The translations under genes and the position numbers were made by a program. This document shows positions 11,569 through 24,794 of a DNA stretch of 32,000 nucleotides, in pieces; position 1 is the stretch's first letter; the number at the start of each line of letters is the position of its first letter. This DNA comes from Balneolaceae bacterium (GTDB taxonomy: Bacteria; Bacteroidota; Rhodothermia; Balneolales; Balneolaceae). Location: NCBI GenBank assembly GCA_965249965.1, contig OZ252262.1, forward strand, positions 3,044,682 to 3,076,681, given 5' to 3'. The notes beneath the pieces are model-generated. The model was not told where the DNA came from. It saw only the letters and a program-made list of their open reading frames with translations, and made no database searches.

Positions 11569-13062
11569 ATGGGTAGAAGTTTATTGTTTTTAGTCTCAGG
11601 ACTAACCATAATTACCGGCATTATTCAAGTAAATAATTCAGAGCGAATTACAGAAATTCCTGAAATCTCTGTTGATTATTACAAAGCACAGCAAGCTAGA
11701 AATTTATCGAAGTCATTAATCGATAATGCGGTTGAAACTATGAAAACCAATAATAATTGGGCAGGAAGTATTAATATTTCCGAAGTAGTTGATACACTCG
11801 CCCTATTATCAAGAAATAATGATGCAAGAAAACTATTGGCTTTAGGCGAACTTAGTTTAGATGAAGTGGTATCGATAGAAAATGAACTAGAAGAGGAGCT
11901 CGCTGCACTTCTTGAAAACCCACAGAGCGGTTACTCCCCTGGAGTAGAAGTAACTGGTAAGTTATCCAGCTATACGCAAACCAGCCAAAATAAACCATCA
12001 AACAATAGTGTTGGGACTTGGGATGAATATAAAGTCCTATTACTCAGTACATCTACATATGATGATATTCAGGTTACTACCGAAGTGCTGATGCAGCGCG
12101 ACTCTTATTCAAAATATTCATACAATACACAATCAGAACTTAGTGCCTCAGGTAGTACTATTTGGTTTATGGATGCCGATAATATTTATGGGCCAATTCA
12201 CACCAATGGTCAGTTTGCAATGTCAGGTAATCCATCATTTTACGGCCTGGTAACTAGTCCAAATATGTGGCGCGCTCATTCTACCAATCCAACTAACCCA
12301 AATTTTTATGGTGGTGAAAACTTCAATGCACCTGTAAAATCAGCCCCTTCAAGTTACGAAGTAAGTAGGTTGGTAACTGCAGCTAACGACGGTGGTAAGA
12401 GGTATTCTGGTGATATAGATGCAAATTTTTATTACGATGCAAATGGTGGCTATGTAGATATTACTTATGGTGGTTCATCGGGTAATGGTTGTGCATATTG
12501 GATGTGGTGGTGTACCCCAATTCCCCCTACTCCACCAACAGTTGAAACTGTTGATTTATCAACCATAAATGGTGTTATCTCAACAGATGGTGAAATTACC
12601 GTACAAGGTGACGTAAATGGGAATGTAACATTACACTCAGAAGATGAAATACAAATTATGGGCGATATTGAGTATAAAACAAGCCCTTTGGTTGATTCAA
12701 CTTCAACTGATTTATTGGGATTAGTAAGTGAAGGAAATGTATTGGTTGACCGTTATGCACATACAGTAAATGGTACACAAGATTTAACCGTACATGCTTC
12801 CATAGTGGCAATCAATACTTCATTTTCTGTAGAAAACTACTATTCGGGCGGAGCCAGAGGTACCCTTAATATGCTTGGAGGTTTAATCCAACAAAATCGA
12901 GGCCCGGTAGGAACATTCTCCGGCTCAACTATTGTATCCGGTTATTCAAAAAATTATCAATATGACAATCGATTGAAAGCTAGTATACCTCCATCCTTCC
13001 CGCGCGAGAGCATATTTTCGATCGTTTACTGGAAAGACGAAATAACTAAAATTTCAGATTAA
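11569..13062 (+). CDS. PilX-like large minor-pilin-type protein, cassette B member 3 (497 aa)
   Basis: MGRSLLFLVSGLTIITGIIQVN followed by DYYKAQQARNLSKSLIDNAVETMKTNNNW. The C-terminal region GTLNMLGGLIQQNRGPVGTFSG...GYSKNYQYDNRL...PPSFP resembles large PilX-type proteins as I remember them. It also contains the motif CAYWMWWCTPIPPTPPT. Confidence 0.45.
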   Translation: MGRSLLFLVSGLTIITGIIQVNNSERITEIPEISVDYYKAQQARNLSKSLIDNAVETMKTNNNWAGSINISEVVDTLALLSRNNDARKLLALGELSLDEVVSIENELEEELAALLENPQSGYSPGVEVTGKLSSYTQTSQNKPSNNSVGTWDEYKVLLLSTSTYDDIQVTTEVLMQRDSYSKYSYNTQSELSASGSTIWFMDADNIYGPIHTNGQFAMSGNPSFYGLVTSPNMWRAHSTNPTNPNFYGGENFNAPVKSAPSSYEVSRLVTAANDGGKRYSGDIDANFYYDANGGYVDITYGGSSGNGCAYWMWWCTPIPPTPPTVETVDLSTINGVISTDGEITVQGDVNGNVTLHSEDEIQIMGDIEYKTSPLVDSTSTDLLGLVSEGNVLVDRYAHTVNGTQDLTVHASIVAINTSFSVENYYSGGARGTLNMLGGLIQQNRGPVGTFSGSTIVSGYSKNYQYDNRLKASIPPSFPRESIFSIVYWKDEITKISD

Positions 13063-13065
13063 TCA

Positions 13066-13446
13066 ATGAGAGTTCTTTTTGTAACACTATTTCTAATTGT
13101 ATTTACAATAGTAGCAGAAGCCCAATCTGTTACTTTTAATGTAAATCTAAAACCTCAATTAGAAGACAGTTCATTTGTACCTGGGCGCGATGAATTAAAA
13201 ATAGTTGGTGATTTATATCCTTTAAATACACCCACACCGTACATACTTTTTGATGAAGAACCCATAGATAGTGTGTATTCAATTACAGTGCGTTTTTCAT
13301 CGCGTTTTCGAAATCAAACTCTTACCTATAATTTCGAAATGTTGTCAAACTATGTGCGTTTAACTGAAGTTCTTCCAAGGAATTTACAACTCCAGGGCAG
13401 AGAAGTTGATCTTGACGCAATGTATTTCAATGCCTTCGCCTGGTAA
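13066..13446 (+). CDS. Small secreted protein (126 aa), possible beta-sandwich/CBM20-like fold
   Basis: Starts 3 nt after the previous stop. It has a signal peptide (MRVLFVTLFLIVFTIVAEAQ). VTFNVNL...ELKIVGD...YSITVRF weakly resembles CBM20-type modules, so the function call is weak. Confidence 0.3.
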   Translation: MRVLFVTLFLIVFTIVAEAQSVTFNVNLKPQLEDSSFVPGRDELKIVGDLYPLNTPTPYILFDEEPIDSVYSITVRFSSRFRNQTLTYNFEMLSNYVRLTEVLPRNLQLQGREVDLDAMYFNAFAW

Positions 13447-13537
13447 ATAATAGATTAATATATTAGCATAATTAGGAAAGACTAACTGCTACTAAAGTAG
13501 CTATACTTTAAATTTAGGTTAAAACTTTGTTAGTCAT

Positions 13538-14029
13538 ATGAGGAGATTATTCATCCTATTTTTTGCTGTTTACCCCTCGATAATTTTTGCTCAAGGTAGT
13601 AATGTTGCTGCTGAAGTAAGTATTCAGGCAAATGTAATTCAAACTATTGAGTTAATTACTGTGAACTCTATGACGTTTGGAAATAATCAACCAGGCCAGC
13701 TGATTATTTATGTTAACCCTGTTAACGACTTAAATGCAGGCTTTATGATTGCCAGTGGTACACCGGAAGCTGAATTTCGACTTGATTATGAATTAGAGCG
13801 TCAGCTAAATAGAGTCGAAGGGGATGGTTTCTTAACTTTTAGGTACGAATTATCTGCTAATACACTAGAAGATCAGGCAAGTTCACAAATAATCGATTAT
13901 GAAAATCGAAATTTACGTTTTAATAATGAAGGTCTTTATTATATCTGGGTAGGCGGAGAAGTAAACTTGGAAAATGCACGACCAGGAAACTACGAAGGCG
14001 ATTTCACAATTGAGATTGACTATATCTAA
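13538..14029 (+). CDS. DUF4402-like secreted fibre subunit (163 aa)
   Basis: Signal peptide MRRLFILFFAVYPSIIFAQ. It has an N-proximal MTFGN motif and the C-terminal motif PGNYEGDFTIEIDYI, both shared with the next three ORFs. Confidence 0.5.
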   Translation: MRRLFILFFAVYPSIIFAQGSNVAAEVSIQANVIQTIELITVNSMTFGNNQPGQLIIYVNPVNDLNAGFMIASGTPEAEFRLDYELERQLNRVEGDGFLTFRYELSANTLEDQASSQIIDYENRNLRFNNEGLYYIWVGGEVNLENARPGNYEGDFTIEIDYI

Positions 14030-14032
14030 TTA

Positions 14033-14614
14033 ATGAAAGGTTTAACATTCATAGTAGTCTGTTTATTAATGTGCTCTACTTTAAAAGCGCAAGAAATAGA
14101 CTTTGGTAGCTTTAGTAGTAGTTACTCAGTTACTTTATCAGAGTTCAGTCCGGGTGCTGAAATCGATTTTGGCACTGTATTCGAAGATGTTTCGCCTTTT
14201 TCTGTAGATATTAGCAGCGCTGTTATTCTCACAATTGAAGGTGTGAGATATCTTGACATAATTGTTGATCTAAATGGACCTGACAATATTACTTTAAATG
14301 GTGATCCATGTGGTGCCAGCTCTTGCCAGGTAGATTTTGATTTAAAAGCTTCCTACGCCAACAGAGGAATATTAAATACTAGTCATGCAGTTAATTTCAG
14401 TGTTAATGGCTCAAATGACGCAAGTGCACAGTTCCCAATAAAATACAGAGGAAATGCGCCTCCTGGACCACCTCCTACTCCCGTATATGAAGGATTCAAT
14501 CCCTCTCTTTTTAATGAAACTGCTTATTTATTTCTGTATGGTGATATTACTGTGGGAAATGTTACCGCAGGATCATATTCTGGAACAATAAATGTAACTA
14601 TTAATTATGATTAG
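14033..14614 (+). CDS. DUF4402-like secreted subunit (193 aa), candidate specialised/tip subunit
   Basis: Signal peptide MKGLTFIVVCLLMCSTLKAQ, an IDFGT motif and C-terminal AGSYSGTINVTINYD. It additionally carries the Cys pair GDPCGASSCQ and the Pro-rich stretch APPGPPPTP. Confidence 0.5.
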   Translation: MKGLTFIVVCLLMCSTLKAQEIDFGSFSSSYSVTLSEFSPGAEIDFGTVFEDVSPFSVDISSAVILTIEGVRYLDIIVDLNGPDNITLNGDPCGASSCQVDFDLKASYANRGILNTSHAVNFSVNGSNDASAQFPIKYRGNAPPGPPPTPVYEGFNPSLFNETAYLFLYGDITVGNVTAGSYSGTINVTINYD

Positions 14615-15128
14615 GCTATTTCTCATCATATTAATACATGTGGTTTCACAAATACATTTGCATTCACAGTTTATCAATTTACAAATAAGAGTTGAACCAG
14701 AATTATCAGCAACAGTTGAACAAGATCTAAATTTTGGGCAATTAGTAATTAATTCTGGAATAACAGAAATAAGACTTGGCGACGTGAATATGGGTATTTT
14801 TAATATTCGTGCCTATTACACGCAAAATATTTATGTGAGCCTCGATTTTCCTACTGCATTGATTCATGATAATCCTGCCATTAAAGATGTTATCCCAATG
14901 GATTTAGACGTTGCATATAACAATACAGGTAGTAGAAGTGTGTTTAATTCAACTGAATTAGAGGGTAATGAAGGTTTCCTACCTGTGACAGAAAACGTAT
15001 TAGTTACCCAACGAAACCAAGAGATATGGCAAGAATTACTACTATTTGTATACGGCTCAATTGATGTAGGAAATGTTAATGAAGGTCTGTATTCAGGTGA
15101 AATCCTACTATTTGTAGACTATGATTAA
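14607..15128 (+). CDS. DUF4402-like secreted subunit (173 aa)
   Basis: Overlaps the previous ORF by 8 nt. It has a hydrophobic N-terminus, an LNFGQ motif and C-terminal EGLYSGEILLFVDYD. Confidence 0.45.
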   Translation: MIRLFLIILIHVVSQIHLHSQFINLQIRVEPELSATVEQDLNFGQLVINSGITEIRLGDVNMGIFNIRAYYTQNIYVSLDFPTALIHDNPAIKDVIPMDLDVAYNNTGSRSVFNSTELEGNEGFLPVTENVLVTQRNQEIWQELLLFVYGSIDVGNVNEGLYSGEILLFVDYD

Positions 15129-15134
15129 TTACTT

Positions 15135-15168
15135 AAAAACTCTTAGACAATTTTAATTAAGAGTTTTT
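15135..15168 (+). terminator. AT-rich perfect 11-bp inverted repeat; weak intrinsic-terminator/attenuator candidate
   Basis: aaaaactctta (15135-15145) pairs perfectly with taagagttttt (15158-15168) around a 12-nt loop, 7 nt after the stop at 15128. Only two G:C pairs are present. Confidence 0.35.
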
Positions 15169-15238
15169 AACTAGGATTGAAAAAGAGATATAAATAATTT
15201 TATACCAGAATTTAAAAGCCAAACTAAACTTTAGAATC

Positions 15239-15790
15239 ATGAAATCACTAAAAAATATCCTTTCTGCTTTTGCATTAGTTGCATTATTAACTACTGCCAC
15301 TTTCGCTCAGGAAAATACTGACGTTAATATTGGAGCAGTTGTTCTTGCAGATATTACTTTAACAAAAAATGCTGATGTAAGCTTCGGTAACATCCAGGAT
15401 ACTGGTAGCCCTGTACTTGACCCTCAAGGAACTAACACTGCAGCAGTTGGTGCAGGTGCTACTTTTGGTAAATTGACAATTGGCGCTGCTAACACAACTC
15501 AGCTTCTAATTGATTGGGATCAAACAACTGTTACGTTAAGTGATGGAACTAACAGCATGACTTTTACTCCAGATATTTCTGCTAACAGTACAGATGATAT
15601 TGCTACTTCTTCTGATGTGACTAAGAACACTGCAAATGCTGCTACTGAAACTTCTGCAGGTGGTGCACTTTTTGTTTATATCGGTGGAGATCTTGGAACA
15701 CTTTCAAGTCAAGCAGCTGGTACTTACACTTCTGATAGTGGAACTGCTGGCGCATCTGGTGATCTTAACATCACAGTTAATTATCAATAA
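15239..15790 (+). CDS. DUF4402-family protein (183 aa), candidate major fibre subunit
   Basis: Signal peptide MKSLKNILSAFALVALLTTATFAQ, followed by Thr/Ala/Gly/Ser-rich low-complexity sequence. The VSFGN motif and C-terminal AAGTYTSD...LNITVNYQ closely match DUF4402 proteins as I remember them (ending ...G.Y......tVnYn). The gene has its own AT-rich 110-nt upstream region and a strong downstream terminator. Confidence 0.65.
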   Translation: MKSLKNILSAFALVALLTTATFAQENTDVNIGAVVLADITLTKNADVSFGNIQDTGSPVLDPQGTNTAAVGAGATFGKLTIGAANTTQLLIDWDQTTVTLSDGTNSMTFTPDISANSTDDIATSSDVTKNTANAATETSAGGALFVYIGGDLGTLSSQAAGTYTSDSGTAGASGDLNITVNYQ

Positions 15791-15811
15791 GAGATAATTA
15801 AAGAATATAAA

Positions 15812-15840
15812 AGTCTCACTCTTCGTGAGACTTTTTTTTT
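15812..15840 (+). terminator. Rho-independent terminator after the candidate major subunit gene
   Basis: agtctcac (15812-15819) pairs perfectly with gtgagact (15825-15832) around the 5-nt loop tcttc, followed by a T run through 15840. Confidence 0.75.
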
Positions 15841-15914
15841 GCCCTAAATCGATTCTTCGCAAATTGTTATAATATTGCTTAGAACAATTTTGAATTATTT
15901 TAACTAAATTATTC

Positions 15915-16775
15915 TTGATGGCAAATTATATCTACGCGATGAAGTCTACTATAACACTTTCAGTTATTCTTTTAATAATATCATCTATCACAATCGCTAA
16001 TGCTCAAGTAACCATTGCACCTACTAATTTATTTATAGAGGAGAATGCAAGATTTGGTACTTACATGGTGATAAATAATTCAAATGATACTCAAGAAATC
16101 TCGATTGATTTCACCTTTGCATACAGCCAAAGTGATGAGCAGGGTTACAGAACAATTGTTCAGAATGAAGATGAGATTAAGGAAGCACACTCGATTGCTG
16201 ACTATGTACGTGCATTTCCAAGGAATTTTACTTTAGCGCCTGGGCAAAGACAAGTAATTCGATTACGTCTTACCCCCCCTAATGACCTCGAAGATGGAAC
16301 ATATTGGGCTAGAATAAAAACTGCCTCAACACCAGAAACCCCACCAATCGAGTTGCAGTCTAATGATGCTGTTGCTGCTCGGGTAGGAATAAGAGTTGAA
16401 CAGGTAACAGGATTATTCTATAAAAAAGGATCGGTTAGTACAGGGATTGAAATTGAGGAAATTAGAACAGAATATGATTCTGAAAGCGAGAATCTAATCG
16501 TGCTGATTGATCACCAAAGAACAGGGAATAGCCCATTTCTTGGCTCTATAATCACGTCAATCATTGACAGTAATGGCCAAGAGGTTCGTAGAGGATTCTT
16601 ATCAACTTCACTATATTTTGATGGAATTTTCAGGCAAGAATTTGAAATTGGAGATCTCCCTAATGGAGAGTATTTAATTCGAGCAACCTTCGAAAGTAAT
16701 AGAAGCGATATCCCAGAATCTGACTTAGTACAGATGCAAAGTGTTACAGAAACCACAACTTTTACGAAGCGTTGA
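15915..16775 (+). CDS. PapD-like periplasmic pilus chaperone (286 aa; the true start may be ATG 15939)
   Basis: Signal peptide MKSTITLSVILLIISSITIANAQ. VTIAPTNLFIEENARFGTYMVINNSNDTQEISIDF and FPRNFTLAPGQRQVIRLRL...LEDGTYWARIKTASTP follow the chaperone N-domain pattern (v.i.P.r......v.N, then PP.f.l.pg..q.vRi...D.E..f.l.v..iP). The size fits two Ig-like domains. Confidence 0.6.
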   Translation: MMANYIYAMKSTITLSVILLIISSITIANAQVTIAPTNLFIEENARFGTYMVINNSNDTQEISIDFTFAYSQSDEQGYRTIVQNEDEIKEAHSIADYVRAFPRNFTLAPGQRQVIRLRLTPPNDLEDGTYWARIKTASTPETPPIELQSNDAVAARVGIRVEQVTGLFYKKGSVSTGIEIEEIRTEYDSESENLIVLIDHQRTGNSPFLGSIITSIIDSNGQEVRRGFLSTSLYFDGIFRQEFEIGDLPNGEYLIRATFESNRSDIPESDLVQMQSVTETTTFTKR

Positions 16776-19757
16776 GAATAATATTAAAACCATTATTCTT
16801 TTTTTTTTTCGCTACTAGTTTCCAGTAGTACGGCTTTTGCTCAAAGCGAAGACGACTTCGAAGTTTATCTTCAATTTACTCATAGAGGTGTAATAAACAA
16901 TTATGTTATTGCTTATTACGATGGAAATGAGTTTTTCTTACCTGTTAAAGAGTTATTTGATCTGCTTCAGATCGAGGCCAATTTAAATGGCGTTGTAATA
17001 GATGGAAGGTTTGCACTCGAACAGACTGATTATTTCATTGACCTAAATAGACAGTCGATAACATATGGAGACAAATCTTATCCATTAACCAGTGACGATT
17101 ACATACTCACTGAATTAGATACATACATCCCTCCTAGATATTTTAGTGAGGTTTTTGGTTTAAATTTTTCGGTAGATTTTAATAACCTCACACTCAGGCT
17201 GGAAACAGAAGTTGAAATACCTATTATTCAACGCTATTTAAGACAGTCAAAACGAAAGCTTGCAGATACCAACAGAGGCGAAGTCTCCTATTACCCTTTA
17301 GAGTTTGGACTAGAACGAAGCTTTTTCGATGGAGGGTTTATGGATTATAGCTTAGCAGCTAACTTAAATAATCAACTAAATACTTTCAGTTATAGTAGCT
17401 CGCTTGGGTTACAACTGCTAGGTGGGGATTTACAAGGTGGGTTATTCGGTAACGTAAATAATGAAACCACCATATTTGAAACCAATAACTTAAGATGGAG
17501 AACCTTATTACGCGATAATAATTGGCTTAAAAGTATAACAATTGGTCAAACTAATACCGATGGTGTATTTATGAACAGCTATACTGGAATAAGATTATCC
17601 AATGAACCAATTGAGCCTAGAAGGTTATTTGATGAATTTGAATTACAAGGAAATACAATTCCCCAATCTGAAATTGAATTATATCTCGACAATGCACTAA
17701 TCGATTTTAGTCAAGCCGATGAATTTGGAAATTATCGGTTTTTGGTACCTCAATACTATGGTACAACTCAATTAGATTTAAGAATTTATGGACCAACCGG
17801 ACAAATAATTCAACAACGATCAAGACAGCAGATTCCATTTAATTTTGTACCAAAAGGAGAATTTAATTATAGATTTAATGCAGGTGTATTAGAGAATTCA
17901 TCTATTGGTGAGACGGATAGAGATAATACAATACAAGGATCTATTTCATATGGGGTTAATCGTTGGTTAAGTTCGAAAGTAGGAATCGAATATTATTCCT
18001 CAATAATTGGTGAGAATAAACCTTTTTATACAGCAACATTATCAAGCCGAATCGCATCTAACTATATATTCTCTGTTGAAGGAGTAACAGAAGGGTACTT
18101 ACGATCGACGTTAAATGCGGTTTATCCAAATTCTGCCAGTATCAATCTGGATGTAACTAATTACTCTTCAAAGGAAACAATATTTAATACATCGAATAAT
18201 GATTATCAGGTAATAGGAAGCATATTCCTTCCAATAACTATAAAAAATCAATTATTCAGCGTAAGGGTTTCAAATTTTTCGAGAGTAAGACAAGGGTTAA
18301 CTTTAAATACTATTAGAACCGATCTGAGCGCGAAGGTTAATCGTATTAATATGAGATTGGGGTATTCAGATAGATTAGTCGATTCTTTTGATATTTTAAA
18401 AGGTTCAGGTTCAGGGATTTTAGAATCTGCACTAACATACAACTTCACAAGAAACCCAAATATTCCAAAATTTATCAGAGGCACTTTTTTACGTAGTCAA
18501 CTTAGATTTGTCCCATCAACAAACTCATTTCAGCAAGGTGAGATACTGGTATCCAGAAGTTTGTTCAATAAAGGTAGAATACAAGCTTCTCTTGGTAGAA
18601 ACTTTCAAGGAAAGTTTAATACGTTTAGAATCAATTTTGTAATTGATTTTGGGGTTATTCGATCGAACACAACTACCACTGTTATCAGAGGTAATGTGAA
18701 TTCTAACCAAACAGTACGCGGTTCAGTTGGTTACGACTCGAACTTCAATAATTTTATTTGGACGAGTAGAAACCAAGTTGGTCGGTCTGGTACAGCTGTT
18801 CGGTTTTTTGTTGACAACAATACAAATGGCACATTCGATTCTGATGCAGATGAACTCCTCGATGATATCAATCTAAGACTTGGAAGAACCGGCGCATCAA
18901 CGGTATATAAAGATGGAATATTATATTACAGCCAACTAAACTCATATTTCCGCTACAATGTTGAATTGAATCAAACATCCATAAAAAACCCAATGCTGGT
19001 AGCAGATCGTGACAGATTCTCAATTGTTACAGACCCGAATTCGTTCAAGTTACTAGATATTCCTTTCAACATGAGTGGAGTTATGGAAGGAGCCGTAGAA
19101 AGAATTTATGACGATGGATTTACACAAGGTATTGGTGGACTAAAAGTTCTTGTTACATATTTAGATGACAATAATGTAAAAGAACTCCGTACTTTTTCAG
19201 ATGGAAGTTTTTATGATTACCCACTTAAACCGGGGAATTATCGTCTTGAAATTGATCCATCACAATTAACCATATTGCAAGCGAGATCTGAACCTGAGTT
19301 CATAAATTTCGAAGTTAAAACACTACGTGACGGTGATTTTGTTGAAGGATTGAACTTCAAACTTCTACCAAAAATTGACCAGGAACAAACACCTGAAGAC
19401 AGTTTAACTGCGCTAACCATTGCTCAAGTAACCGACGAAATTAAGAGTGAACCAGAAATATTAGAATATTCTCAGGAAATATTTGTAACTATTGATGATG
19501 CACTCAGGTACTTAATTCAGGCTCAAAACGCCTTTTACAGCAAGAATATCGAGCTTGCGTTCCGTTTAGTTCAAGAATCATTAGAACTTTTTGAAACTGC
19601 ACAAGGGCACGCTTTAAAGGGAAGTTTTTACTATTTTGAGGGCAACATCGACCAGGCGCAACGACATTGGGAACAGGCACTCAGATTTAACCCCGATCTC
19701 TACATCCCAGATATGGAGACTCTAGAGGACAAGGTTTCGACGAGTGCATCAGATTAG
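16772..19757 (+). CDS. Usher-like outer-membrane fibre-assembly protein (~995 aa if read through) with a C-terminal CarboxypepD_reg-like plus TPR-like extension; reading frame interrupted at the T11 tract
   Basis: The frame of ORF 17340-19757 is open back to 16788 and encodes ...FFSLLVSSSTAFAQSEDDFEV (a signal-peptide end), but it has no ATG/GTG/TTG before 17340. TTG 16772 overlaps the chaperone stop (TTGA) and encodes MRIILKPLFFFFF in the adjacent frame, which stops at 16826. Usher-like motifs include the N-domain FFLPVKELFDLLQIE...IPPRYFSEVFGLNFSVDFNNLTLRLE and the plug-like IELYLDNALIDFSQADEFGNYRFLVPQYYGTTQLDLRIYGPTGQIIQQ. The C-terminal part has LKVLVTY...RTFSDGSFYDYPLKPGNYRLEI followed by TPR-like helices. 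Confidence 0.6.
16799..16809 (+). repeat. T11 homopolymer inside the usher signal-peptide coding region
   Basis: Counted directly as t at 16799-16809, flanked by c at 16798 and c at 16810. Confidence 0.95.
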
Positions 19758-21606
19758 GATGTATAATATAGGTAACATATTCAACCACCGACTTCTCAAT
19801 TTGGCTTCTAAAAAAAGCCACCGACTCCCTACCCCCTCTATTTTTTTATTAGTTTTTGTTAATATTCTAATTGTTAACCCTGTTTTTGCTCAAACTGCTA
19901 TTGATCCTGGTAATACGCAGTCGTTAGAATTAAGAGTTGCAAATCTCGAACAGCAGTACGATTCCCAAATAATCCAGATACTTGCTAATTACTTCGATCG
20001 AAAGAAATTTTTTATTGATGTAAATTTAGAAGCAGAATTAATTGATGAAACAGTTGGAACTTCCCAAAACCAAGTGGTTTCTTCATCACAACCACGGCAG
20101 AATTTATTTATGCCGGGTCTGCCTTTCTTACCTGAAGAAAACGTTCGCCAACAACCATCTTTAACACTAGAGCCTGATGTAATAGTCAATCAAAATACTA
20201 TCAAAACACTCCGTTTGGTTAGTATGAACGTTAACATATATGCTGATACTTCACTTACGGCTGAACAACTCGAACTAATGCGGTTTATAACAGGTATAGC
20301 TGTTAAAGTTAATCCCAATCGAGGAGATCAGATTGTCATTTCTCAAATAGCAATTCCTGATTATACCGAACGACCAGAGCCGATAACTGCAACAACAATT
20401 TCACCTCAACCAACTACAAGTCCGGATTTCAATTCAATCTATACCTACGTTCCTGCATTCGCTTTAATGCTTTTATTTGGTCTCACCTTATTGTTCAACC
20501 GCCTGATGAACAAGCCACAACCACAAATACCCATTAGGGAATTTAGAGAAGCATTTAAGCAAGATTATGCTACTAACAGAGAATTAGCCCGTACAGAGTT
20601 AGAAATCGAAGATCCTGAGCCAATGGAATCACCCGAAATAGTTGTAACGAAAGATGAAATTGTGGAAGCTTTCTTCACTAAACCTGATGAAGTATCCACC
20701 ATTTTCAGATATTGGTTAAGTGACGAAGAAATCGGTGCTGAAAAAGCAGCTGAAGTAATTGTTGCTACCGATAAACATTTACTTCGTACGATTAAACGAG
20801 AATTACACCCAGAGGATTACGAAACGCTTACCGACGCAGTAATCGATTTACCAGAATTAAGCCCAGAAAAGCGTAAAGAAATCCTAACCCAGTTTGGAAA
20901 AATGCTTCAACAGGGTGCGAAGAATACGATATCTGAAGGAAAAAGAAATAAGTTTTCACTCTTCAAATTTCTAGATCATATTTCTGACCAACATATTTTA
21001 ACGCTTCTGGAAACAGAAGACAGTCTATCGGGTGCATTTATACTGCAATATCTACCTGAAGAACATGCAGCAGAATTCATTGAGAAGTTAGACAAAGAAA
21101 TTGCTGCTAAAATTATGTTGCATATGGCAACATTAAACAATCTTACGAACGATCAACAACAAAGAATTTCTTCTGAATTATTTGATAAGGCCATGGATTT
21201 GGTTGAAGCAGAACGTAGCGAGCAGTATGGAGCAGAGCACCTGTACCCTATTCTAGAACGCTTGCCAGTTCACGAACAGAAACGTTATATCGATGAATTA
21301 AAAGCGACCGGATCTATTGTTGGAGCCATATTAGAGAAACAATTTATTACCATCGAGAAATTGCCTGAATTAAGCGATGAAATTATTAAAAGAGCAGTTC
21401 GTACTTTAAATACTGAAACCTTGTTGGATGCTATCGTTGGCCTGGACGCTCATATTGTAGATAAAATTTTATCTGCTCGCCCTAAACGTGAACAACGTCT
21501 GCTTAGAATGGAACTTGACGAATTACAAGGCGCAAGTAATTTGCAAACCGAATATGCAAAAGCCATTCTTATGAATTCAATTAGAAAGAATGCGAATGAC
21601 GGCTAA
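19744..21606 (+). CDS. Membrane protein reading as a FliF-like ring-building domain fused to a complete FliG-like (N/M/C) rotor protein (620 aa from GTG 19744; 615 aa from ATG 19759)
   Basis: It has an N-terminal hydrophobic segment (IFLLVFVNILIVNPVFAQ), a periplasmic segment, a TM helix (IYTYVPAFALMLLFGLTLLF), and then a cytoplasmic FliG-like sequence. See the two domain features below. The start is 1 nt after, or 14 nt overlapping, the usher stop. Confidence 0.65.
   Translation: MHQIRMYNIGNIFNHRLLNLASKKSHRLPTPSIFLLVFVNILIVNPVFAQTAIDPGNTQSLELRVANLEQQYDSQIIQILANYFDRKKFFIDVNLEAELIDETVGTSQNQVVSSSQPRQNLFMPGLPFLPEENVRQQPSLTLEPDVIVNQNTIKTLRLVSMNVNIYADTSLTAEQLELMRFITGIAVKVNPNRGDQIVISQIAIPDYTERPEPITATTISPQPTTSPDFNSIYTYVPAFALMLLFGLTLLFNRLMNKPQPQIPIREFREAFKQDYATNRELARTELEIEDPEPMESPEIVVTKDEIVEAFFTKPDEVSTIFRYWLSDEEIGAEKAAEVIVATDKHLLRTIKRELHPEDYETLTDAVIDLPELSPEKRKEILTQFGKMLQQGAKNTISEGKRNKFSLFKFLDHISDQHILTLLETEDSLSGAFILQYLPEEHAAEFIEKLDKEIAAKIMLHMATLNNLTNDQQQRISSELFDKAMDLVEAERSEQYGAEHLYPILERLPVHEQKRYIDELKATGSIVGAILEKQFITIEKLPELSDEIIKRAVRTLNTETLLDAIVGLDAHIVDKILSARPKREQRLLRMELDELQGASNLQTEYAKAILMNSIRKNANDG
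19945..20361 (+). other. FliF/SctJ-type ring-building-motif (RBM3-like) periplasmic domain
   Basis: LEQQYDSQIIQILANYFDRKKFFIDVNLEAEL resembles FliF lE..i...i..iL.pivG.g.v.v.V.a.ld. IKTLRLVSMNVNIYADTSLTAEQLELMRFITGIAVKVNPNRGDQIVISQIAIP resembles FliF i.RLSVAVvV....lt.eq...i..lv..avGf...RGD.v.V....F. A TM helix follows, as in FliF. Confidence 0.55.
20731..21591 (+). other. FliG-like N, middle and C-terminal domains
   Basis: N domain: IGAEKAAEVIVATDKHLLRTIKRELHPEDYETL...EILTQF (FliG_N has the EKAA motif). Middle domain: LLETEDSLSGAFILQYLPEEHAAEFIEKLDKEIAAKIMLHMATL (compare FliG l..EhPQtiAlil.yL.pe.AA.vl..Lp.e....v..riA.l). C domain: LSDEIIKRAVRTLNTETLLDAIVGLDAHIVDKILSARPKREQRLLRMELDELQG...EYAKAILMNSIRK (compare FliG l.d.di..ll.evd...L..ALkga..el.ekil.nmS.Raae.l.edle..gpv...dve.Aq..il). 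Confidence 0.65.
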
Positions 21607-21623
21607 CTTCTAATTTTATCCAC

Positions 21624-22154
21624 TTGATGAACGTACGGCTTTATACATTAGCACTCATTTTTACATTTTTATTGCTTCATTGTTCATCATCCAGCGAAGT
21701 TGTAGAGCCTGAAGGAGAAACGATTACAGAGTTAAGCGAAGTAGAATTAAAAGCCCAGGCGCAAGCTGATAGCGTAGCTGAAGCCGAAGCCAAGGAAGAA
21801 GAACTTCGAAGCGCACTTATCGAGCTTTATAAAGATGAAATTTATTCCCGATATCAGGCGCAGGCAAATACACTAACTAACTATTACATCTTAGCCCAGC
21901 AACATTTTTATTCTGGCGATTTTGAAAATGCCTTATTCTTAATCAATAGAGCTGCATTGATTAAAGAAAATGCTGATGTACTTGCTTTACGAGGCAGTAT
22001 ATATTTGGGCCTTGGTTATATCAATGAATTTGTAAATCAGTGGCGGAGAGCGCTTGAAATGGACCCCGAAGTTCCTCTACCTTCTTCTGCATATATCATT
22101 CAGCAATTGCAAAATAACGGACTAATCGACGAAAACTTAAAAAAGGCTTTTTAA
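21624..22154 (+). CDS. Lipoprotein with C-terminal TPR-like module (176 aa)
   Basis: It has a lipobox-type signal (TFLLLHC followed by SSSS), an acidic/Ala-rich helical segment (AQAQADSVAEAEAKEEE) and a TPR-like C-terminus that is homologous to the usher C-terminal extension. Confidence 0.6.
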   Translation: MMNVRLYTLALIFTFLLLHCSSSSEVVEPEGETITELSEVELKAQAQADSVAEAEAKEEELRSALIELYKDEIYSRYQAQANTLTNYYILAQQHFYSGDFENALFLINRAALIKENADVLALRGSIYLGLGYINEFVNQWRRALEMDPEVPLPSSAYIIQQLQNNGLIDENLKKAF

Positions 22155-22159
22155 CCTTC

Positions 22160-22957
22160 ATGCGGACATCCATTCTTAACATTTTATGCTTTCTGATTTC
22201 TCTAGTTGTATTGGTGTGGGGTGCTTTGCTTGTTACTGGATTTACACAATACGACTTAATTCCCAGTAGATTTTCGTTTTTAAATCTTCCAAGCCTGGCA
22301 ATCGTTTTTGGCGGGATCACAGCGAGCGTTTTTATTAGTTATCCATTTAACAGTGTCTTAAAAGCGTTATTGGAAAGCACCAAACTATTTTCTTATAGCA
22401 CGATTACTCCCGATTTATTAGAACAGGATGTGCAAAGAATTATGGATTGGCAAAAAATGATAAAACAAGACCGATTCTCTGCTATTTCTCAGCTAAGTGA
22501 AGATTACTCCAATCAATTTGAAGGGTATTTGTTTTCCGTGTTAGACACCAACTATTCAACCGAAGATTTACGTGAACTTGGAGAAATTAATATCGAAGAA
22601 AATTATACCCGCCAGCAGCTTGTAAATCAGATAATATCGAGCATGGGAAAAACATCACCTGTATTTGGCATGCTTGGCACGCTCTTTGGGTTGATTGTAA
22701 TTCTATCTGGTTTTAGTGAGGTAGAATCTCTACTTACAGGTTTGGGTGCTGCACTTATGACCACTCTTTATGGGATTTTGATTGGTAATTTCGTCTTTAC
22801 GCCCATGGCCAAGAAAATGAATAATGTTGCTTCGATGCGCTATTTTCGTGAAAAATTGATTTTAGAAGGGATCATACTAATCGAAGAGAATAAGTCTGCC
22901 TTACAGGTATACGACCGATTACAGGCGCATATGCGAAGAAATAAGAACATGATTTAA
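22160..22957 (+). CDS. MotA/TolQ/ExbB-family proton-channel protein, MotA-like (265 aa)
   Basis: Two N-terminal TM helices are followed by a ~100-aa charged cytoplasmic loop, and then the conserved C-terminal TM pair SPVFGMLGTLFGLIVIL...LGAALMTTLYGILIGNFVFTPMAKKM. This is the MotA_ExbB family signature. Confidence 0.8.
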   Translation: MRTSILNILCFLISLVVLVWGALLVTGFTQYDLIPSRFSFLNLPSLAIVFGGITASVFISYPFNSVLKALLESTKLFSYSTITPDLLEQDVQRIMDWQKMIKQDRFSAISQLSEDYSNQFEGYLFSVLDTNYSTEDLRELGEINIEENYTRQQLVNQIISSMGKTSPVFGMLGTLFGLIVILSGFSEVESLLTGLGAALMTTLYGILIGNFVFTPMAKKMNNVASMRYFREKLILEGIILIEENKSALQVYDRLQAHMRRNKNMI

Positions 22958-22967
22958 TTCATGTATC

Positions 22968-24794
22968 GTGAAGAAGAAGAAAAACATAATTCTAACACGT
23001 TCGCTCTTTCCATTACAAGAATTTGAGGAAGATGATGAAAATAGCTGGCAAGTTAGCTATTTAGACATCATTACCATTGTACTGGGTTTTCTGATCATAT
23101 TACTTTCTGTTTCACAGATAACTAAATCTGAGTTTACCTCGCTTTCTTCGATTTTTGGTAAACTAGCAGATGAATCTGAGTTCATAACAACACCAATTGG
23201 CAATATTCAAGATGAACTGGTTGAAATGCTTGAACCGGAAATTACAGCCGGAAATCTTGAAATTATTCGTGATTTAAATGATTTACGTATTCGTTTCAAA
23301 AGTGATGATTTATATAATTCCGGAGAAGCAAAATTACAACCAAGTGCAGAATACCTTTTAGATAGAGTTCTAATTGCAATGCAAATGACAAGCTACAACG
23401 ATTTTAATATCGATGTGGAAGGTCATACCGATAATACTCCAATTGCTTCAATTCAATATCCTTCGAATTGGGAATTGTCCACAGCAAGAGCTGCAAATGT
23501 TGTTAAGTACTTCAATGACTTAGGAATTCCTGCAAAGCGTCTAAAAGCGTCTGGTTATGCAGACTCGCGTCCAGTAATTGAATATGATTCGCTAGGCTTT
23601 CCTTTTGCAGCTAACAAAGAAAAGAACCGAAGAGTTGTACTTCGGTTATACTATTCTACTGATAATTTGATAGAAGAACGCCGAGAAGATGCTATCGTTG
23701 AGGATGTATTAACTTCAGAATCATTGGAAGGCTCAATTCCTGAAATCACAACTATAGATCCGCCAGAAAGTGATGAAAATGTACTTGTTCTAGCTGATCA
23801 ACCGGCCATGGTAACTTTACTTGAAAGAAACCGAATTGAAGAAGCAAGGCGAGAAGAACAAAATCGCCAACAACAGGAAACCAATGAACTAATTGCAGAA
23901 GTTGAACAAAAAAATATCCCAAATAACCAAGAACTTATACCTGAGCCTGAACCTGTAAATGAAATACCAGAACCTGTAGTATCTACCCCACCTGCTTCAA
24001 CTCCAGCGATAGCTTCTATGAATTTGCCTTCAACATTGAGAGTTGATGCACGATGTCAGTTTTCAGTACAAATTGGAGAGTTTGAAGCATTACAAACTGC
24101 GTTTCAGCAGGCTGCCCGAGTTGAATCAGCCTTATCTTCCTCTGTGATTTTAACTTACAATAACAATGAATATTCTGTACGGACAGAACCAATTTCTTCT
24201 TTTAGAGATGCCCGGACTGAACAAAATAGAGTTGCTGAGCAATTAAATAATACTGACGTTACACTCTTACATCAGTGCTACAACAATACATTCAATCGTC
24301 CCAAGCCGGTTAGGTACTTAATACAATTTGGAGCTTATCAGAGCAGATCGAATGCCATTGATTATACCATTGAGTTAATGAATCAGTTTGGAGTTCAGGC
24401 GTATATGAATCGTGTTTCTGACACTTATAATGTATTAACCGGACCATATACCTCAAGAAGCGAAGTTCTGTCTCGCCTTCAAGCTTTTAGGTCGCAAAAT
24501 ATTTCTTCAAACTTGTTTATTCGTCATCAACCGGAAACTGTTTTTAATTACAAATATGCTTATCAAATTGAGATAGACACATTTTCGGACAGGATTTCAG
24601 CTGAAAATCTCGCAAATCAGGTACAAACCACTAGCAATATCACCACACGAGTTGAAGAATTAAATGCAGGAATTTTTTCTGTATTAACGGGACAATCAAA
24701 CAGTTTTGATGAGACGCAACGAGCTTTCAACAGGCTTAGAACATCCGGTATAGCAGAAAATCCGGTAATATTTATCCTTGAATCTTCATTATAA
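22968..24794 (+). CDS. MotB-like stator/peptidoglycan-anchoring protein: MotB TM helix with conserved Asp, OmpA-like domain, Pro/Glu-rich linker, three SPOR repeats (608 aa, GTG start)
   Basis: WQVSYLDIITIVLGFLIILL matches MotB W.v.YaDfmT...; the Asp codon gac is at 23064-23066. OmpA-like motifs are IDVEGHTDNTPI...NWELSTARAANVVKYF...RLKASGYADSRPV...NRRVVL. A linker (EPEPVNEIPEPVVSTPPASTP) precedes the SPOR repeats. Confidence 0.8.
   Translation: MKKKKNIILTRSLFPLQEFEEDDENSWQVSYLDIITIVLGFLIILLSVSQITKSEFTSLSSIFGKLADESEFITTPIGNIQDELVEMLEPEITAGNLEIIRDLNDLRIRFKSDDLYNSGEAKLQPSAEYLLDRVLIAMQMTSYNDFNIDVEGHTDNTPIASIQYPSNWELSTARAANVVKYFNDLGIPAKRLKASGYADSRPVIEYDSLGFPFAANKEKNRRVVLRLYYSTDNLIEERREDAIVEDVLTSESLEGSIPEITTIDPPESDENVLVLADQPAMVTLLERNRIEEARREEQNRQQQETNELIAEVEQKNIPNNQELIPEPEPVNEIPEPVVSTPPASTPAIASMNLPSTLRVDARCQFSVQIGEFEALQTAFQQAARVESALSSSVILTYNNNEYSVRTEPISSFRDARTEQNRVAEQLNNTDVTLLHQCYNNTFNRPKPVRYLIQFGAYQSRSNAIDYTIELMNQFGVQAYMNRVSDTYNVLTGPYTSRSEVLSRLQAFRSQNISSNLFIRHQPETVFNYKYAYQIEIDTFSDRISAENLANQVQTTSNITTRVEELNAGIFSVLTGQSNSFDETQRAFNRLRTSGIAENPVIFILESSL
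24054..24755 (+). other. Three SPOR-like (septal/denuded-glycan-binding type) repeats at the MotB-like C-terminus
   Basis: Repeat 1 is CQFSVQIGEFEALQTAFQQAARVE...YSVRTEPISSFRDAR. Repeat 2 is YLIQFGAYQSRSNAIDYTIELMNQFGVQAYMNRVSDTYNVLTGPYTSRSEVLSRLQAF. Repeat 3 is YQIEIDTFSDRISAENLANQV...FSVLTGQSNSFDETQRAFNRL. All follow the SPOR pattern (y.vQvGaf....A......l...g......g.yrV..Gpf.s...A). Confidence 0.6.

Follow-up and report, generated by a model that had tools for sequence, protein, structure and literature searches.

Gene content and organization of the usher locus

The window, that is, the entire 32,000-nucleotide stretch of DNA analyzed here, comes from a member of the Balneolaceae and carries on its forward strand a gene with the predicted fold of an outer-membrane usher, preceded by candidate pilus subunits and followed by FliG/MotAB-type genes. 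The relevant features are as follows.

13538-15790, forward strand: four small genes, candidate pilus subunits, three with sub-threshold DUF4402 matches; order conserved in relatives
15809-15840, forward strand: intrinsic terminator (terminator scan) with hairpin AAAAGTCTCAC..GTGAGACTTTT followed by a T tail; separates the pilin-like genes from the chaperone-like/usher operon
15915-16775, forward strand: upstream 286-aa gene, the stop codon of which (TGA 16773-16775) overlaps the usher start
16772-16774, forward strand: usher start codon, TTG; its TTGA overlap is common to all four lineages
16772-16828, forward strand: short 18-codon frame of the T11 state, MRIILKPLFFFFFATSFQ, stop TAG 16826-16828
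16788-19757, forward strand: usher long open frame of 989 codons, closed by TAG 19755-19757; encodes an N-terminal domain, a beta-barrel and its plug, C-terminal beta-sandwich domains, and a TPR domain at the C-terminus
16799-16809, forward strand: T11 homopolymer, a slippage-prone tract; read in any frame, it encodes the signal peptide's poly-Phe hydrophobic core
17340-17342, forward strand: ATG, first canonical start in the long frame and start of the 805-aa public call; inside the barrel region, without a signal peptide
19759-21606, forward strand: FliG-like gene (Pfam FliG_N/M/C; NCBIfam fliG below cutoff)
21624-22154, forward strand: TPR protein, downstream in the same operon direction
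22160-22957, forward strand: MotA/ExbB-family channel, downstream in the same operon direction
22968-24794, forward strand: MotB-plug/OmpA/SPOR protein, downstream in the same operon direction

An earlier reading made from the letters alone (hereafter the sequence-only reading) had named the long frame an usher, and this identity was confirmed by fold. Specifically, the AF2 model had a pLDDT of 80.3, and the top 17 Foldseek matches in the PDB were all FimD/PapC, with E-values from 4e-28 to 9e-14 and up to about 900 aligned columns. At the sequence level, we found no Usher (PF00577) match in Pfam, none in NCBIfam, and none by profile against PDB sequences, and the modeled protein resembles the FimD/PapC usher at the level of fold only. 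The TPR domain at its C-terminus was recovered as a Pfam match. The same reading had taken the upstream gene for a chaperone, which could not be confirmed: its 286-aa product had only a weak, sub-threshold Pfam match (fn3_5), its single-sequence AF2 model was poor (pLDDT 42), and a 6-sequence profile gave no PDB sequence match.

The DUF4402 matches in the small genes had E-values of 3e-5 to 5e-4, all just under the Pfam cutoff. The T9 tail of the terminator lies at 15832-15840, and both hairpin and T9 are conserved in L001-L006. Downstream, the ATG of the FliG-like gene begins 1 nt past the usher stop, a spacing that probably reflects translational coupling to the usher or subjects the gene to usher polarity, while an out-of-frame usher may exert polarity on the genes from 21624 to 24794. 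The downstream gene order is conserved in L001, L005, L007, and L011; the split that the FliG-like gene seemed to have in L011 is a run of N's in a scaffold gap. The cluster is intact throughout, with synteny preserved, and no other broken gene was found among the cluster genes with an L001 counterpart (11569-24794), judged against the L001 orthologues.

Reading frames at the N-terminus and the poly-T tract

The TTG at which the usher gene starts shares the tetranucleotide TTGA with the stop codon of the upstream ORF, and the frame it opens, MRIILKPLFFFFFATSFQ, is ended by TAG 16826-16828. The long frame opens at 16788, immediately after TAA 16785-16787, and continues for 989 codons without a stop to TAG 19755-19757. 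Its sole canonical start before 17343 is ATG 17340, leaving 184 startless codons. The poly-T at 16799-16809 has a length of exactly 11 nt, more than any other homopolymer of the window; it begins 27 nt past the TTG start codon, in the 5′ coding region, and exceeds the length of about 8-9 nt from which tracts are prone to slippage. A tract of T10, T13, or T16 joins both frames into MRIILKPLFFFF(F..)SLLVSSSTAFAQ and then SEDDFEV, a normal signal peptide with a predicted signal-peptidase site after AFA (16833-16841), such that the mature protein begins at CAA 16842. With T11 or T14, which are out of frame with TTG 16772, translation reaches the stop at TAG 16826, and with T9, T12, or T15 the TTG frame stops at TAG 16816; T12 and T15 could join the long frame only via the non-canonical ATT 16783. 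On recheck, all coordinates and translations given by the sequence-only reading for the TTG/TGA overlap, the position of the T11, the startless frame, and its repair by T10 were correct. The n-region in the TTG frame is conserved (M-R-I/K ... K), and the AAA/AAG difference that separates the window from L005 there is synonymous.

The public record (P0001) is an 805-aa protein called from ATG 17340. Usher homologues are ~1000 aa long, carry ordinary N-terminal signal peptides, and begin, once mature, with (A)Q-SEDDFEVY, and, given this length and N-terminus, the long frame requires an upstream start. ATG 17340 is not the biological start, and the 805-aa call is truncated, instead of having about 994 aa. 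Over the 165 codons from the signal peptide to ATG 17340 (16842-17339), pN was 0.16 and pS 0.86, the latter being saturated. The resulting pN/pS of the N-domain, about 0.19, equaled that of the remainder of the gene, also when the two out-of-frame lineages were compared. Such purifying selection on an N-domain that is without a start indicates that full-length protein has been made over evolutionary time.

Base composition predicts about 0.11 A/T runs of at least 11 in 32 kb, and the T11 run taken alone is only mildly unusual. It is beyond chance because three related lineages have tracts of T10-T19 at identical codon positions, and these form the sole indel between otherwise identical sequences. 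We rejected the idea, suggested by the T11-G of L001, that the surplus nucleotide is the C following the tract instead of a T: T11-C is also found in L005, and in the long frame TCG/TCA encodes a conserved Ser. A terminator function of the T run and a frameshift-stimulating RNA structure nearby were likewise considered, and neither was found in the terminator scan or by structure z-score.

Tract length among relatives

The sequence-only reading had allowed for orthologues in which the homopolymer would be absent and a conserved in-frame start present. Instead, the three closest lineages all start at the TTGA overlap and have a poly-T at the corresponding site; in more distant members of the family, the signal peptides are ordinary and lack the tract. 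In one strain, tract lengths were T11 (L002), T13 (L019), T17 (L015 and L016), and T19 (L017), with 0 substitutions across 3630 aligned columns and the tract as the sole indel, although the T17-T19 lengths come from short-read assemblies, in which PCR stutter could distort them. Protein variants with one and two additional Phe (P0128, P0134) were also present. A second strain, represented by three consecutive SRA runs, had an ON allele, T12, in frame with ATG (L020) and an OFF allele, T11, with no in-frame start (L022 and L023), again with the tract as sole indel and 0 substitutions, here across 3132 columns. The terminator T9, some 960 nt upstream of the tract, served as a control and did not vary in any of the long loci. 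These differences in length at zero substitutions (T11/T13/T17/T19 and T11 versus T12) support the earlier proposal of the tract as a candidate phase-variation or slippage switch.

The lineages also differed in their start codons. The sister lineages have starts in two frames, TTG and an ATG 8 nt downstream, and therefore two of the three length classes yield full-length protein in them. The L001 and L003 lineages comprised in-frame T10 and T11 alleles as well as variable lengths. In the window and in L005, a lineage with 75% aa identity to it, TTG is the only start, and the T11 is out of frame. For L005, this state was observed in two JGI assemblies and one Logan assembly, all from short-read metagenomes, but L005, L006, and L018 are one strain (0 substitutions) and do not represent independent observations. 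That both single-start lineages sit at exactly T11 is what a fixed, selected state predicts likewise.

The window's own species is represented by one database sequence. Variants were found via protein clusters, which favors in-frame alleles and renders the proportions of ON and OFF not estimable. A genome scan returned two loci only, and a metagenome scan with the clade alignment gave, among the matches listed, L006 again and a C-terminal fragment. Four proteins with short N-termini were considered as additional frameshift cases and rejected: P0047 and P0042 are TTG-start miscalls with intact in-frame signal peptides, and P0121 and P0122 (982 aa) reflect gene-caller choices on an in-frame T11.

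Interpretation of the tract

Taken together, we consider it likely that the T11 is a slipped-strand contingency locus within a pilus-assembly gene of usher fold, captured here in an OFF or low phase. Slipped-strand mispairing during replication would alter the number of T. With TTT specifying Phe in every frame, the tract would always encode the hydrophobic core, and changes of 3 nt would only add or remove Phe. A shift of 1 or 2 nt would cut the TTG start and the n-region (16772-16798) off from the rest of the gene. In the T11 state of the window, ribosomes starting at TTG 16772 would halt at TAG 16826, and full-length usher would arise only from T10 or T13 cells or transcripts. Little or no pilus assembly is predicted in this phase, and expression of the FliG-like, MotA, and MotB genes would probably be reduced through lost coupling and polarity. 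We infer switching in the window's own organism from its relatives; the OFF or low state of T11 and the polarity on the downstream genes are likewise predictions.

A different, rather unlikely explanation is that the T11 is fixed out of frame in the window and L005 lineages and is decoded by programmed RNA-polymerase slippage of the kind known from tssM1, Shigella spa13/mxiE, and Thermus dnaX, in which the dA11:rU11 hybrid would slip to give a minority of U10/U13 transcripts and a constantly low level of usher relative to pilins and chaperone. It would account for two lineages, 75% identical in amino acids, that both have T11 followed by C, the same +1 shift, and an intact gene under purifying selection, and for the L005-type strain having T11 in all 2-3 samples. 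Runs of at least nine A/T cause transcriptional slippage in bacteria (PMC5009743), and the T11 is such a run at the frame junction; the A11 of tssM1 in Citrobacter rodentium is a precedent (PMC4256274). Some slipping on U11 is moreover physically expected whatever the state of the DNA. However, the homologous tract varies in the DNA of sister strains, including in-frame T10 and T11, so that the out-of-frame layout is not conserved in the clade, and the three L005-type observations come from one strain. Furthermore, a change of -1 or +2 is required to recover the frame, whereas in most of the bacterial cases on record bases are gained.

We regard it as improbable that the T11 is a homopolymer sequencing or assembly error that hides a true tract of T10 (or T13) and an intact gene that is ON; the sequence-only reading had named a sequencing error as the trivial alternative. 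Homopolymers of at least 10 are a classic site of indel errors, above all when long reads are assembled; long reads would fit the source, a single contig of 3.48 Mb; and one base fewer produces a perfect gene. Yet the same out-of-frame T11 is present in an independent lineage assembled from short reads (JGI and Logan), making an artefact peculiar to this assembly less likely, and the T11 OFF allele beside the T12 ON allele in a third lineage argues that out-of-frame alleles are real in nature. There was also no further frameshifted gene among the window genes with L001 orthologues, and the tract stays a variable locus even if its length here is wrong.

That the usher is a decaying pseudogene, permanently inactivated by a frameshift to which the tract is incidental, appears highly improbable. 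The gene is indeed out of frame, and its public annotation starts 189 codons late, but its 989 open codons contain no stop, the pN/pS of the N-domain (about 0.19) matches that of the remaining gene, the entire cluster is intact and syntenic, and the lesion coincides exactly with the tract found to be reversible in relatives. Least probable of all is +1 frameshifting, which the sequence-only reading had also raised, in the form of a programmed, prfB-like ribosomal recoding on the U run: although a U-rich run lets tRNA-Phe re-pair in +1 and the needed shift is +1, the 0-frame codon after the tract is neither a stop nor a conserved slow codon (GCU in the window, AUU in L005), RNA structure was not significant (z = -1.45), no conserved stimulator was found, and sister lineages are in frame.

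Implications

To our knowledge, simple-repeat phase variation is known almost entirely from host-adapted pathogens. Here, its signature, tract-length alleles as the only difference between otherwise identical environmental metagenome sequences, comes from free-living Balneolaceae, and the locus sits in the usher of an uncharacterized pilus-like system linked to FliG/MotAB-type genes. Our literature searches returned nothing on DUF4402, on the usher/FliG/MotAB cluster, or on phase variation in Balneolaceae. The locus is a warning against taking frameshifted ushers in this family for pseudogenes, and the contingency locus that we favor would offer a natural ON/OFF handle for working out the role of the usher/FliG/MotAB cluster. 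It further suggests that bet-hedging of surface structures may extend to marine Bacteroidota-like bacteria, for example against phage or grazers, or between attachment and dispersal.

A broader and more speculative possibility, which we hold to be doubtful, is that the tract provides, beyond binary switching, graded, multi-state control over the dose of an undescribed envelope machine in which the usher-type pilus platform would be linked genetically with the FliG-like, MotA, and MotB/OmpA/SPOR proteins. Lineages with two starts, of which TTG is coupled to the upstream stop, would then have two ON levels plus OFF, and in the window lineage the out-of-frame T11 would be maintained as a resting state with a trickle of product from RNA-polymerase slippage. 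If true, no earlier contingency or slippage locus would be on record for Balneolota, whose members live freely in marine and saline habitats.

Comparison with known systems

The switch is of a known kind, in a marine bacterial family previously unstudied. As in FimD/PapC, with which the predicted structure aligns over about 900 columns of the full-length proteins, there are an N-terminal domain, barrel, plug, and C-terminal domains; unlike in FimD/PapC, there is an additional C-terminal TPR (SPOR in the Gracilimonas homologues), and FliG-like, MotA, and MotB genes follow. Classical fim/pap phase variation works through inversion of the promoter or through methylation and is not known to use a tract within the usher gene. 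In Neisseria opa (CTCTT) and in Helicobacter pylori outer-membrane protein leaders (CT), pyrimidine repeats encode the hydrophobic core of the signal peptide, with in-frame changes in length being tolerated and out-of-frame changes switching the protein off. Those repeats have penta- or dinucleotide units and belong to adhesins or porins, whereas here a homopolymer lies in an assembly platform.

In Neisseria pilC, changes in the length of a poly-G within the signal-peptide region switch the gene ON or OFF and control piliation (PMC13017665). The usher tract is similar to that of N. gonorrhoeae and N. meningitidis in being a homopolymer within the signal-peptide coding region of a pilus-biogenesis gene, but it is poly-T rather than poly-G, in an usher rather than a type IV pilus factor, and in free-living Balneolaceae rather than a host-restricted pathogen; moreover, switching of pilC was measured by experiment, whereas here it is deduced from population polymorphism only. 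In C. rodentium tssM1, an A11 breaks the genomic frame, which RNA-polymerase slippage re-establishes in part of the transcripts, these having 10-15 A (PMC4256274). Both cases have an 11-nt A/T homopolymer interrupting an envelope-machine gene, but the tssM1 tract is near the 3′ part, has a fixed genomic length, and has two products needed in a set ratio, while the usher tract varies in the DNA of relatives and its short product is an 18-aa peptide.

Finally, the CAAT repeats of Haemophilus influenzae licA (lic1) are accompanied by start codons in two of three frames, such that two repeat-number classes make product and one makes none (PMC2212159). Unlike licA, which has a tetranucleotide repeat and encodes a cytoplasmic enzyme, the locus described here has a homopolymer and encodes a secreted outer-membrane protein, and the window has one canonical start. 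In the sister lineages, however, the layout is exactly that of licA, with a TTG frame, an ATG frame, and the repeat located just past the start region.

Anatomy of the usher start

The sequence-only reading had described a split start of the usher-fold gene, and every element of that anatomy was present in the window, namely the TTGA overlap, the two frames, the T11 run, and the startless stretch:

16772-16774, plus strand: usher start codon TTG, overlapping the TGA stop (16773-16775) of an upstream 286-aa ORF
16799-16809, plus strand: exactly 11 consecutive T, where both frames meet; every other homopolymer in the window is shorter
From after TAA 16785-16787 to TAG 19755-19757, plus strand: long frame of 989 codons, all open

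The frame opened by TTG 16772 translates to MRIILKPLFFFFFATSFQ and ends at TAG 16826-16828. The long frame has no ATG, GTG, or TTG upstream of ATG 17340, and the window offers no alternative start other than the non-canonical ATT at 16783. Tract lengths of T10, T13, or T16 would yield MRIILKPLFFFF(F)SLLVSSSTAFAQ followed by SEDDFEV, a fused signal peptide whose n-region is positively charged, whose core is hydrophobic, and which carries the cleavage motif AFA-Q. Base composition leads one to expect ~0.11 such runs per 32 kb; the run alone is thus only mildly unusual, and the weight rests on comparative evidence.

Tract length in related lineages

The three nearest lineages, here termed the L001, L003, and L005 types after homologous loci, share the TTGA-overlap start and have a poly-T in the corresponding place, while more distant homologues had no tract. 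Upstream of the tract, the sister lineages offer starts in two frames, specifically the TTG that overlaps the upstream stop and an ATG. The two-start region and the tract alleles were as follows:

L001 6001-6040, and near position 593-640 in L019, L017, and L020: two-start region
L001 type, T11 in L001, L002, L004, and L021: in frame with TTG
L001 type, T13 in L019 and 5 similar contigs: frame of the ATG 8 nt downstream, other than the TTG frame
L001 type, T17 in L015 and L016: in frame with TTG
L001 type, T19 in L017: ATG frame
L003 type, T10 in L003: in frame with TTG
L003 type, T12 in L020: ATG frame
L003 type, T11 in L022 and L023: no start in frame (OFF)
L005 type, T11 in L005, L006/L013, and L018: out of frame, with the layout of the window

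T14 is additionally implied in the L001 type by a protein that is longer by one Phe; in this type, T11, T14, and T17 use the TTG and T13 and T19 use the ATG. The resulting signal peptides of the L001 and L003 lineages (MRKCLGFFL.. from TTG versus MPRLFSL.. and MLKHF.. from ATG) differ in their n-regions. In the window and the L005 lineage the TTG is the sole canonical start, and both are at the out-of-frame T11.

Loci with differing tract lengths were otherwise identical, with 0 substitutions in 3630 columns among L002, L015, L016, L017, and L019, and 0 in 3132 columns among L020, L022, and L023. Moreover, an alignment of eight sequences, with up to 93 substitutions, showed no indel apart from the tract, and a control homopolymer, the T9 of a terminator ~960 nt upstream of the tract, was invariant in all long loci. 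We read this length polymorphism in otherwise identical sequences as the population-genetic signature of a slipped-strand hotspot. The earlier proposal that the tract is a phase-variable or slippage switch is therefore supported, with the out-of-frame state captured in the window.

Selection on the gene and alternative explanations

The window was compared with three related lineages at 75-76% amino acid identity. Across the 165 codons from the signal peptide to ATG 17340, pN was ~0.16 and pS ~0.86 (saturated), values indistinguishable from those of the rest of the gene, also between the two out-of-frame lineages. Differences between the window and L005 were synonymous in the TTG frame upstream of the tract (AAA/AAG, Lys) and in the long frame downstream of it (TCG CTA versus TCA TTA, Ser-Leu), and therefore the coding frame changes inside the T run.

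Among the alternatives, a fixed T11 read through programmed RNA-polymerase slippage survives best, although we consider it unlikely. It would fit the occurrence of one and the same out-of-frame T11 in two lineages and the known behavior of A/T runs of at least 9 (PMC5009743) and of the tssM1 A11 (PMC4256274), but the three L005-type observations represent one strain, variability of the tract is demonstrated at the DNA level, and sister strains have in-frame alleles. A certain leak through slippage is to be expected regardless, and OFF may therefore in practice mean low. An assembly error at the tract, which the sequence-only reading had named as the trivial explanation, is conceivable for this one record but less probable still, given that out-of-frame alleles occur independently in short-read assemblies and that no other gene is broken among those in the window with an L001 orthologue. 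Neither a pseudogene, which we regard as highly improbable, nor a biological start at 17340 is supported by the substitution patterns, the N-terminal stretch appearing as constrained as the rest of the gene and all 989 codons being open. Finally, +1 ribosomal frameshifting on the tract is the least probable of these alternatives, as neither a stimulator nor conservation of a 0-frame pause codon was found.

The public counterpart of the gene product (P0001, on a 3.48-Mb contig) is an 805-aa call from ATG 17340, a mis-annotation caused by the frameshift. This call (17340-19757) is without the signal peptide and N-terminal domain. TTG starts are often mis-called in other records of the usher family as well (P0042, P0047, P0121-P0123).

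Usher identity and genomic context

Pfam, NCBIfam, and a profile search of PDB sequences returned no usher match for the usher-fold protein; apart from a C-terminal TPR, the matches were weak and below threshold. However, its AlphaFold2 model (30 homologues, pLDDT 80) matched full-length FimD and PapC ushers in Foldseek (E 4e-28 to 1e-22, up to ~900 aligned columns). The name usher, as used in the sequence-only reading, is therefore right at the fold level, the modeled product being an usher with an added TPR domain, but has no counterpart at the sequence level. The chaperone identity of the upstream 286-aa product could not be confirmed. Database searches recovered a homologue family in Balneolaceae (Balneola, Gracilimonas, Fodinibius) with proteins of ~1000 aa, nearly all of which begin with a normal signal peptide and continue with ..AQ-x-DD/E-FEVYL. 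Homologues from Gracilimonas and Fodinibius (P0048-P0117) are 1130-1550 aa and have a C-terminal SPOR (peptidoglycan-binding) domain, which in the window is located on a MotB-like protein (22968-24794) and not on the usher.

The gene belongs to a conserved Balneolaceae cluster with the following features:

28-24794, plus strand: cluster with an order common to L001, L005, L007, and L011
15809-15840: strong intrinsic terminator (11-bp stem and T9) between the last pilin-like and the chaperone-like genes
19755-19761, plus strand: junction with the FliG-like start ATG 19759, 1 nt past the usher stop TAG

The products, from 5' to 3', are a giant adhesin (2689 aa, T9SS-sorted), a DUF4900 protein, DUF4402 pilin-like proteins, the chaperone-like protein, and the usher with its C-terminal TPR, followed by FliG-like and TPR proteins and, last, by MotA and a MotB-plug/OmpA/SPOR protein. 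Genetic linkage of an usher to FliG/MotAB-type proteins is an unusual combination, and a literature search for such a cluster found no paper. The terminator hairpin and T9, conserved in four of four lineages, suggest that attenuation adjusts the ratio of pilin to usher. For the FliG-like ORF, ATG 19759 is the probable start rather than the mechanically listed GTG 19744, and L001 has the equivalent ATG directly after its usher stop. A C7 run (16273-16279) lies in frame inside the chaperone-like gene (..LTPPN..); L001, L002, and L004-L006 had no C run of at least 7 at the matching place.

Proposed mechanism and comparison with known systems

Poly-T encodes poly-Phe in all three frames, which allows the hydrophobic core of the signal peptide to accommodate the tract. 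Triplet gains or losses can be harmless there (FFF, FFFF, and FFFFF protein variants are seen), while changes of 1 or 2 bases detach the start and n-region from the gene body. The L001 and L003 lineages, in which TTG and ATG signal peptides are both acceptable, would thus be ON in two of three length classes; the window and the L005 lineage, with only the TTG, would be ON in one of three. In the T11 state of the window, translation would terminate at TAG 16826 and the following 2.9 kb would go untranslated, so that the FliG-like start (ATG 19759) would likely lose its coupling and the Mot genes would likely be subject to Rho-type polarity.

The mechanism itself is already known from SSR contingency loci such as pilC, opa, and licA. 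The pilus-biogenesis gene pilC, whose signal-peptide region contains a poly-G homopolymer, offers the closest precedent (PMC13017665), and the two-frame start arrangement of the L001 and L003 lineages is as in H. influenzae licA (PMC2212159). A literature search found no such locus in Balneolota. New here are this host group, an usher-fold protein as the target of a contingency locus, poly-T/poly-Phe as the repeat, and FliG-like and MotAB genes as the genetic context.
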